A stretch of DNA of 8,625 bases from a virus. Its lineage: Duplodnaviria; Heunggongvirae; Uroviricota; Caudoviricetes. A program made the translations under genes and the position numbers. The notes below the pieces were generated by a model, which worked only from the letters and a program-made list of their open reading frames with translations, did not search any database and was not told the origin of the DNA. The DNA lies in the IMG/VR virus record IMGVR_UViG_2529293076_000018; one strand, given 5' to 3'. Each line of letters begins with the position of its first letter. Position 1 is the stretch's first letter. Positions 1,836-2,140 of the stretch are shown piece by piece.

Positions 1836-1873
1836 AAATAAAAAAATCCCGCAGAGTTAGCGGAGCTGCGGGA
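1835..1873 (-). terminator. Intrinsic terminator-like hairpin on the minus strand (8-bp GC-rich stem, then a T-run on the minus strand)
   Basis: Plus-strand tcccgcag (1847-1854) and ctgcggga (1866-1873) are exact reverse complements with an 11-nt loop. On the minus strand the stem is followed by tttttttatttt (complement of 1835-1846). On the plus strand it is preceded by an A-run, so it is not a plus-strand terminator. It overlaps the stop codon of I. Confidence 0.45.
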
Positions 1874-1880
1874 GAGAACG

Positions 1881-2000
1881 ATGAAGATTAACGTTATGGA
1901 GTTATTTTTCAGGCATCAAAAAAGTAATGCAGCGTCATTATTGCGGCTACAGGCAATTGCCGGAAATGTGAAGAGTTTCAGAAATTTTATTCCGTCATGA
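1881..2000 (+). CDS. Hypothetical small basic protein (39 aa) inside an AT-rich insert between I and J
   Basis: ATG at 1881 with GGAGAG 4 nt upstream (1871-1876), stop TGA at 1998-2000. Translation: MKINVMELFFRHQKSNAASLLRLQAIAGNVKSFRNFIPS. A strong hairpin terminator follows directly. It is below the 60-aa cutoff of the supplied ORF track. The base composition is much more AT-rich than the flanking tail genes. I recognise no homology, so the coding status is uncertain. Confidence 0.3.
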   Translation: MKINVMELFFRHQKSNAASLLRLQAIAGNVKSFRNFIPS

Positions 2001-2002
2001 CA

Positions 2003-2033
2003 CAGGCACCCTCCGGGGTGCCTGTTGTTTTCT
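2003..2033 (+). terminator. Rho-independent terminator (9-bp stem, 4-nt loop, T-rich tail)
   Basis: caggcaccc (2003-2011) pairs with gggtgcctg (2016-2024) across the loop tccg, followed by ttgttttct (2025-2033). Confidence 0.55.
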
Positions 2034-2140
2034 GGCATAAACAGATTCAGACATCAGACAGGAGAGGGGGACAGAGTGGGTAAAGGGGCGGCAAGGGGCA
2101 CACGCCGGTAGAGGCAAAGGACAATCTTAAGTCCACGCAG

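Follow-up and report, generated by a model that had tools for sequence, protein, structure and literature searches.

What occupies the gap between the tail genes I and J in this phage genome, and which of its two strands is read? In the window, by which we mean the whole 8,625-nt stretch of Caudoviricetes DNA analyzed here (IMG/VR record IMGVR_UViG_2529293076_000018), the stop codon of I and the start codon of J are separated by 240 bp (1836-2075), and the GC content is 0.435 at 1801-2000 compared with 0.53-0.65 in the neighbouring genes. The initial annotation had noticed this AT-rich DNA of about 240 bp and had stated that in lambda the same genes lie only a few tens of base pairs apart; both statements hold, the lambda spacing being 60 bp when measured. 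A terminator scan found four terminator-like sites within 1500-2500, compared with 1.0 expected. The insert had been regarded as an uncharacterised moron, that is, a cargo unit expressed from the prophage, carrying a gene for a 39-aa basic peptide between two convergent terminators, and a small antisense RNA had been offered as a second idea. Our analysis favours the latter. With a probability of roughly 0.88, the minus strand of the spacer at 1840-1914 is the prophage sRNA EcOnc22/23/24 of EHEC O157:H7 Sakai, a variant of PasB of EPEC E2348/69. The features on which the argument draws are the following.

1158-1835, plus strand: tail assembly gene I, from the ORF list and annotated as I in the identical VT1-Sakai and PV15-279 records; stop TGA at 1833-1835.
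1840-1914, minus strand: mature sRNA of the EcOnc22/PasB family, 75 nt, 5'-GCCUGAAAAAUAACUCCAUAACGUUAAUCUUCAUCGUUCUCUCCCGCAGCUCCGCUAACUCUGCGGGAUUUUUUU-3', placed by CLASH reads, alignment with PasB and published CRAC and northern data.
1840-1873, minus strand: intrinsic terminator of the sRNA; stem 1866-1873 with 1847-1854, loop 1855-1865, U7 from 1846 to 1840.
1881-2000, plus strand: 39-codon ORF with an ATG start, judged spurious, its frame being broken in most alleles.
1883-1891, minus strand: single-stranded core UUAAUCUUC, a candidate seed, from an alignment of 20 alleles in which AUCUU is invariant.
1921-1942, minus strand: -10 candidates P1 (TACTTT, 1926 to 1921) and P2 (AATAAT, 1942 to 1937), from consensus scoring and the CLASH 5' end.
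1964-1989, no strand assigned: 26-bp block AATGTGAAGAnnTTCAGAAnTTTTAT with a CRP-like TGTGA-N6-TCAGA at 1967-1982, from allele alignments.
2002-2033, plus strand: GC hairpin followed by a U-rich tract; stem 2002-2011 with 2016-2025, upstream of the J ribosome-binding site (RBS).
2061-2088, plus strand: start region of gene J; RBS GGAGAGGGGG, GTG at 2076 and, at 2085-2088, a run of four G that lacks one base.

The start of J at GTG 2076 was taken from the annotation of the identical Sakai and PV15-279 records. The window spacer is 100% identical to those of VT1-Sakai (Sp15, the Stx1 prophage of E. coli O157:H7 Sakai), CP-1639 and Stx2a_WGPS6 (NC_049945), and many other Stx phages carry a spacer that is 79-85% identical to it. 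The window represents a different prophage copy from Sp15: its J does not have the Sp15 truncation and is frameshifted in the G run, and its K is frameshifted as well. By megablast the spacer is present in 802 of 5,426 complete E. coli genomes (about 15%), at a median of three and a maximum of nine places per carrying genome. Lambda-type loci have 60 bp between I and J, whereas loci of the EHEC type have ~238-264, ~340-347 or 855 bp, and the terminator motif of the sRNA was found in 79 of 118 J loci and in no lambda-type locus. The spacer DNA is an insertion relative to lambda.

Three published Hfq CRAC peaks lie in this kind of spacer. Tree et al. 2014 (PMC4104026, Table S2) reported EcOnc22 (Sp15), EcOnc23 (Sp14) and EcOnc24 (Sp11) as three homologues on the strand antisense to tail genes, and EcOnc22 gave a northern band of ~85 nt and was destabilised in delta-hfq. 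The coordinates in that study refer to NC_002695.1, and we converted them to the current record by a measured shift, which was +139 at AgvB1, +135 to +139 at the StxS terminator tR' and +135 from a CLASH read. The three peaks all map inside the I-J spacers of Sp15, Sp14 and Sp11. Used unshifted in NC_002695.2, the published coordinates would put EcOnc22 at 1992-2052 of the window (minus strand), on the wrong side of the spacer, a placement that is rejected by the measured version shift. EcOnc51, the PasA homologue, was also tried as a shift calibrator and proved ambiguous, with two terminators at that place.

Waters et al. 2017 (PMC5286369) printed hybrid reads of EcOnc22, 23 and 24 in their RNase E CLASH table, and the EcOnc halves of these hybrids all start GCCTGAAAAATAACTCCATAACGTT / GCCTGAAAAATAAC and carry GCCTGAAAAATAACTCCATAACGTTAATCTTCA. 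The EcOnc22 fragment matches the window exactly from 1914 to 1882 on the minus strand, and therefore the spacer holds a known, experimentally verified sRNA; EcOnc22 and the sRNA of the window are identical in sequence.

PasB of EPEC E2348/69 is the second published representative. Pearl Mizrahi et al. 2021 (PMC8550237, Table S6) placed it at 1,466,343 to 1,466,261 on the minus strand (83 nt), between E2348C_1436 and E2348C_1437, verified it by northern blotting with the probe AATCCCGCAGTGATCGCGGAGCT, found its stability to be Hfq-dependent and listed a U tract of 7 (Table S5). E2348C_1436 and E2348C_1437 are I and J, 240 bp apart, and PasB lies 6-88 nt past the I stop. The probe corresponds to the window plus strand at 1845-1867, the loop excepted, the 5' end of PasB aligns to window position 1915, and the window allele is 78% identical to PasB over 91 aligned nt. 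PasB, which resides in prophage PP6, and the window RNA share the 240-bp spacer, the antisense orientation, the stem CCCGCAG/CUGCGGG with U7, the AUCUU core, the upstream block and the plus-strand hairpin. On the other hand, the window allele is 7 nt shorter than PasB, the loop and the 5' third differ, and the -35, TTCACA in E2348/69, has degenerated in the window. Homology, an antisense location between I and J and an 8-bp terminator stem with U7 place the window RNA in this family, and the CLASH reads, the PasB alignment and the published CRAC and northern data establish what it is, which strand encodes it and how far it extends. Tree et al. 2014 and Pearl Mizrahi et al. 2021 have already described the element, and the label "uncharacterised" has to be withdrawn; the small antisense RNA ending near 1840, the second idea of the initial annotation, is EcOnc22 of the PasB family.

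A recent preprint almost certainly describes this element, too. Zhu, Shabalina and Storz 2026 (bioRxiv 10.64898/2026.05.13.724894) describe PasB as lying within an operon for structural proteins of the phage and use three representative phages, NC_049945 among them. By elimination, NC_049945 is the PasB representative, and it has a single copy of the window spacer. The link between PasB and EcOnc22-24 is absent from the Pearl Mizrahi 2021 table and from the searchable text of Zhu 2026, and in the literature examined, the latter represented by that text, the equation of the two names appears to be unrecorded. Rfam, searched at gathering and permissive thresholds with the window and four related loci, gave nothing meaningful, and the region is covered by no family. 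The 66-nt HnrS, a prophage sRNA present in as many as nine copies, was considered as a candidate and rejected, being EcOnc10-12 at a different locus.

We then compared the parts of the sRNA among alleles. The minus-strand terminator scan match runs from 1864 to 1848 with the tail ATTTTTTT, and folding of the same strand gives the 8-bp stem followed directly by U7. Of 33 distinct alleles, all share the stem CCCGCAG/CUGCGGG and the U tract except u4, which has CCCTCAG; the loop varies in both sequence and length. The body is likewise variable, with 69% mean column identity, except for UUAAUCUUC, and this core is a candidate seed on the strength of its conservation. The seed position proposed by Zhu et al. 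agrees with the same core. The sRNA comprises a body of ~50 nt that is single-stranded and contains the core, then the terminator hairpin and U7, ending 5 nt past the I stop. The minus-strand hairpin with its T-run had been recognised initially and is present, but it had been described as overlapping the I stop, whereas the terminator starts 5 nt past it. The two terminators of the spacer had also been called convergent; in fact they point away from each other, and each stops transcripts on their way out of the spacer.

A sigma-70 promoter at ~1921-1966 would drive the minus-strand transcription. P1, which is without a good -35, predicts a +1 at G1914 and an RNA of 75 nt; this start is the 5' end common to three CLASH reads and is within 1 nt of the E2348/69 annotation. 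P2 predicts a +1 at ~1930 and an RNA of 91 nt, and in the window it has a good -10 and a poor -35. In E2348-type alleles P2 reads TTCACA-16-TATAAT (11/12), and most other alleles have TTCACA-16-[T/A]ATAAT (10-11/12) at a fixed position, while the window P2 scores 8/12 and the promoter scan calls none in the window allele. The northern band of ~85 nt falls between the two predicted lengths. Position 1914 may be a primary or a processed 5' end, and we infer the choice of promoter from consensus scores and the CLASH 5' end.

Upstream of both candidates lies the 26-bp block, which is invariant except at positions 1975, 1976 and 1984 and, in one diverged allele, at its 5' edge (a substitution at 1964). 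It is kept although the sRNA and promoter regions have diverged by ~30% among alleles, and it is also kept in the spacer class of ~370 bp, in which everything to its right is replaced; this persistence argues for selection on the block. What acts on it is a matter for more tentative reasoning. It is possible, though we would not call it probable, that the block is a CRP site that ties the sRNA to the carbon source through class I activation of P1. The motif TGTGA-N6-TCAGA matches 9 of 10 core positions with one mismatch, its centre is at -60.5 from the P1 start, near class I spacing, and P1 is the candidate without a good -35; the conservation of the block across diverged alleles, its three variable positions aside, fits as well. 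Spf is repressed by CRP. PasB was higher in overnight LB than in DMEM and Spf showed the opposite (PMC8550237), which would fit activation by CRP, but these conditions differ in growth phase, too. Moreover, the motif alone is not significant, with 0.42 expected by chance per window, the conservation covers the whole block beyond the half-sites, and the centre lies at -44.5 from the start of P2, the stronger of the two promoters, a distance at which activation is not canonical. A UP element or a binding site for some other regulator is an alternative reading of the block. Neither the conserved block nor its CRP-like site was found in the literature examined.

How, then, might the RNA work? The EcOnc22 sequence is transcribed in lysogens, is bound by Hfq, which it needs in order to be stable, and is in contact with RNase E in hybrids (PMC4104026, PMC5286369), and the initial expectation that the insert is expressed from the lysogen is supported by these data. 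Given the identical sequence in Sakai, the window sRNA would likewise be transcribed from the prophage in lysogens and be bound and stabilised by Hfq. For PasB, RIL-seq found 37 partners, which belong to both the core and the accessory genome, and at least 98.7% of its chimeras had PasB as the second RNA (PMC8550237), as is expected for an sRNA. Most likely, the sRNA would act in trans, base-pairing with host and island mRNAs via the conserved core. No shared target motif for PasB is reported in Pearl Mizrahi 2021 (PMC8550237; there is no pasB entry in file 9), and we found no published regulatory phenotype for EcOnc22 or PasB, the targets of which are listed as "unknown". The CLASH hybrids of EcOnc22-24, with one or two reads each, use the variable segment CCAUAACGUU and not the conserved core. 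One of these hybrids was located in yjbJ, and its count is too low for yjbJ to be called a target.

Because the sRNA is perfectly complementary to the I-J spacer of the late transcript, it might also act in cis, besides or instead of in trans, through cleavage of that mRNA after induction, dampened J synthesis or titration of the sRNA. Along its whole length the RNA lies antisense to the late operon, and its position is strictly conserved, both according to Zhu 2026 (bioRxiv 10.64898/2026.05.13.724894) and in the alleles aligned here. We nevertheless consider a cis role rather unlikely, as RIL-seq gave many partners in trans (PMC8550237) and lambda manages without the sRNA. A still bolder combination, which we regard as unlikely indeed, would make it a multicopy prophage sRNA that is gated by CRP and also acts in cis, linking host physiology to the production of J, the tail-tip protein; at induction the late mRNA may then titrate the sRNA and silence its host regulon. 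If this were true, the I-J junction would be a docking site for antisense cargo (the sRNA with or without sodC, described below), with expression tied to the lysogenic state.

A hairpin is also present on the strand opposite the sRNA. The plus-strand scan match has its stem at 2002-2025 and the tail TGTTTTCT, and folding of 1990-2035 gave -24.4 kcal/mol (z = -5.3, with 0 of 200 shuffles as good). Among 16 distinct alleles the hairpin shows one covarying pair (U-A in eight, C-G in six), six G-U cells are valid on the plus strand alone compared with one on the minus strand alone, and a U tract follows on the plus strand only. From the G-U bias and the plus-only U tract it follows that the hairpin, if it works, works in tail-sense RNA. 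The 60-bp spacer of lambda has a positionally equivalent GC hairpin and U-rich tract directly before the J RBS, and a Citrobacter relative with a spacer of 104 bp has the same kind of hairpin there; thus the hairpin belongs to the junction and not to the insert. In the spacer class of ~370 bp a different hairpin stands at the same place. The arms are AACCGCC/GGCGGUU in lambda and CAGGCACCC/GGGUGCCUG in the window, and the lambda hairpin fails the rule of the terminator scan whereas that of the window is called. On this comparison, the plus-strand hairpin appears to predate the insert at the I-J junction. The strong plus-strand terminator of the initial annotation is present but is not private to the insert, lambda having its equivalent. 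We know of no established function for the lambda hairpin. In the window, the structure at 2002-2033 would be an intrinsic terminator or RNA stabiliser of the late operon, which polymerase modified by Q would read through.

Could the same hairpin end a second sRNA on the plus strand, with the block at 1964-2001 as its body, so that the spacer would hold a back-to-back pair? The block and hairpin form the best-conserved part of the spacer (93% mean column identity), the G-U pairs and the U tract assign the hairpin to the plus strand, and sRNA dyads are known at another prophage site. Even so, we hold this to be highly improbable. A plus-strand promoter is absent from every allele scanned, Tree 2014 (PMC4104026) lists no tail-sense Hfq peak in these spacers, and the part of the EPEC RIL-seq tables covered here contains no I-J intergenic RNA of tail sense. 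In addition, lambda has the equivalent hairpin without the block, and the class of ~370 bp keeps the block but has a different hairpin.

We give hardly any credence to the proposal that the insert is a gene for a 39-aa basic peptide at 1881-2000 on the plus strand, with its own RBS and insulated by two terminators. The ORF and its ATG do exist, with GGGAGAG upstream, a similar ORF of 41 codons survives in four other alleles, and one phage record annotates a 32-aa ORF here. The frame, however, is intact in only 6 of 30 distinct short-spacer alleles, and the 39 codons are not conserved at this junction: the start codon is ACG or ACA in 13 alleles, in 15 the length of the segment cannot be divided by 3, and an in-frame stop interrupts four other alleles, that of E2348/69 included. 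A Pfam search with the peptide gave no match at E <= 0.01, two phage records that annotate "hypothetical proteins" in the spacer do so in differing frames and lengths, and the plus-strand promoter that such a gene would use was not found in any allele scanned. What looks like an RBS is the 3' arm of the terminator of the sRNA, and the ORF opens with codons that are complementary to the conserved core. As the alleles indicate, the ORF simply runs opposite the sRNA, its promoter region and the conserved block upstream, and this strand is non-coding.

With the peptide set aside, the antisense sRNA can be considered as cargo of the junction. The spacer class of 855 bp carries, on the minus strand, a gene for a 175-aa Cu,Zn superoxide dismutase (sodC; Pfam Sod_Cu, E = 3.9e-32) with its own terminator, then PasB; this class retains P1 but has lost both P2 and the conserved block. 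The sodC allele, together with the three spacer classes, shows that phages of this lineage take up antisense cargo between I and J, and the sRNA gene is one small cargo unit of this kind, lying antisense between the late tail genes I and J. To call the insert a moron was thus right in kind, but the cargo is an antisense non-coding RNA and not a peptide, and the plus-strand hairpin is not part of it.

For annotation, this means that lambdoid prophages of EHEC and EPEC should be given an antisense-strand sRNA gene in the I-J spacer, in place of the hypothetical small protein that some phage records show there. The names EcOnc22-24 and PasB, which are treated apart in the papers examined (the preprint in its searchable text), are tied together here, and the conserved upstream block with its CRP-like site offers a testable regulatory input. 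What our analysis adds to the known element is this equation of names, the block with its CRP-like site, the rejection of the ORF, the apparently ancestral plus-strand hairpin and the sodC allele of the junction; the value for the field is modest.

Other sRNAs of lambdoid prophages in EHEC resemble the element described here. The anti-sRNAs AgvB and AsxR, as well as HnrS, are also short, Hfq-binding, often multicopy and located in late regions. They differ from EcOnc22/PasB in place, AgvB/AsxR being at the PR' moron site and HnrS at EcOnc10-12 whereas EcOnc22/PasB is in the I-J spacer, and the Rfam models of AgvB and AsxR had no match in the window.

The other comparison is with the morons of lambdoid phages. 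The concept is said to go back to Juhala et al. 2000, and bor and lom are morons of lambda. Like lambdoid morons, the spacer element is extra DNA in a late operon, present or absent at the same junction (60 bp in lambda-type loci, longer in the EHEC types), with a lower GC content, its own terminator and expression in the lysogen, the plus-strand hairpin lying outside the unit. A promoter of its own scores 10-11/12 in most alleles, and in the window the best candidate scores 8/12 and the scan finds none. Unlike those morons, it carries a non-coding RNA that is antisense to the operon in which it sits, and its sister allele adds sodC in the same orientation.

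In the window, the reading frame of tail gene J is broken at the start of the gene (2076-2141). The G run at 2085-2088 holds four G residues in the window versus five in VT1-Sakai (Sp15) and PV15-279, two records with annotated I and J, and all the other fetched alleles carry one base more than the window at this run, in their case a T or a C. Because the run is short, the frame opened by the GTG at 2076 reads into a TAG at 2109, and the long J ORF occupies 2141-5554 with the first 22 codons missing. Either the missing base is a sequencing error in the homopolymer, or J carries a true lesion and is a pseudogene. 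Tail gene K, which encodes a C40 peptidase (518-1257), is in two pieces:

518-919, frame 2: K residues 1-134
910-1257, frame 1: K residues 132-247

Since the two pieces lie in different frames, a frameshift is placed near 910-922. Taken together, the split of K and the lesion in J suggest a defective prophage or an indel-prone assembly.

Just 5' of the J ribosome-binding site, at 2047-2061, lies a heptamer repeat, CAGACAT, present in two copies in the window and in four in the spacer of another fetched locus (L007). Downstream of J, the GC content rises to 0.70 inside the ORFs at 6900-7300, where a strong skew of A over T (+0.5 to +0.57) was also seen; this GC-rich, A-skewed interval is the expected place of the side tail fibre gene.

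Tree 2014, Waters 2017 and Sy 2020 give their Sakai positions in the numbering of NC_002695.1, from which the current RefSeq version, NC_002695.2, is displaced by +139 at 1.94 Mb, +135 at 2.90 Mb and +133 at 5.11 Mb; used uncorrected in NC_002695.2, the older coordinates misplace short features.

Many of the genome contigs among the J loci L085-L119 are labelled Streptomyces, Paenibacillus, Shewanella, Pseudomonas or other genera, and J on them is of the lambda or EHEC type at 78-98% identity. The one contig of this set that we checked (L093) was 100% lambda, and the off-genus contigs are therefore probably spike-in or contamination.

The I-J spacer also occurs in other forms. At L082 and 24 other loci it is ~345 bp long and retains the PasB-type sRNA, its promoter and the conserved 26-bp block upstream of that promoter, with the right-hand part swapped for ~190 bp of unrelated sequence. 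This replacement, for which Rfam returned no match, contains a hairpin, CCCCGGTATC/GATACCGGGG, with T-rich runs on either side, on both strands, and the hairpin may act as a two-way terminator. At four further loci (L068, L005, L051 and L086) the spacer reaches 855 bp and carries an antisense sodC, encoding a Cu,Zn superoxide dismutase of 175 aa, which has its own terminator and is followed directly, on that strand, by the PasB-type sRNA.
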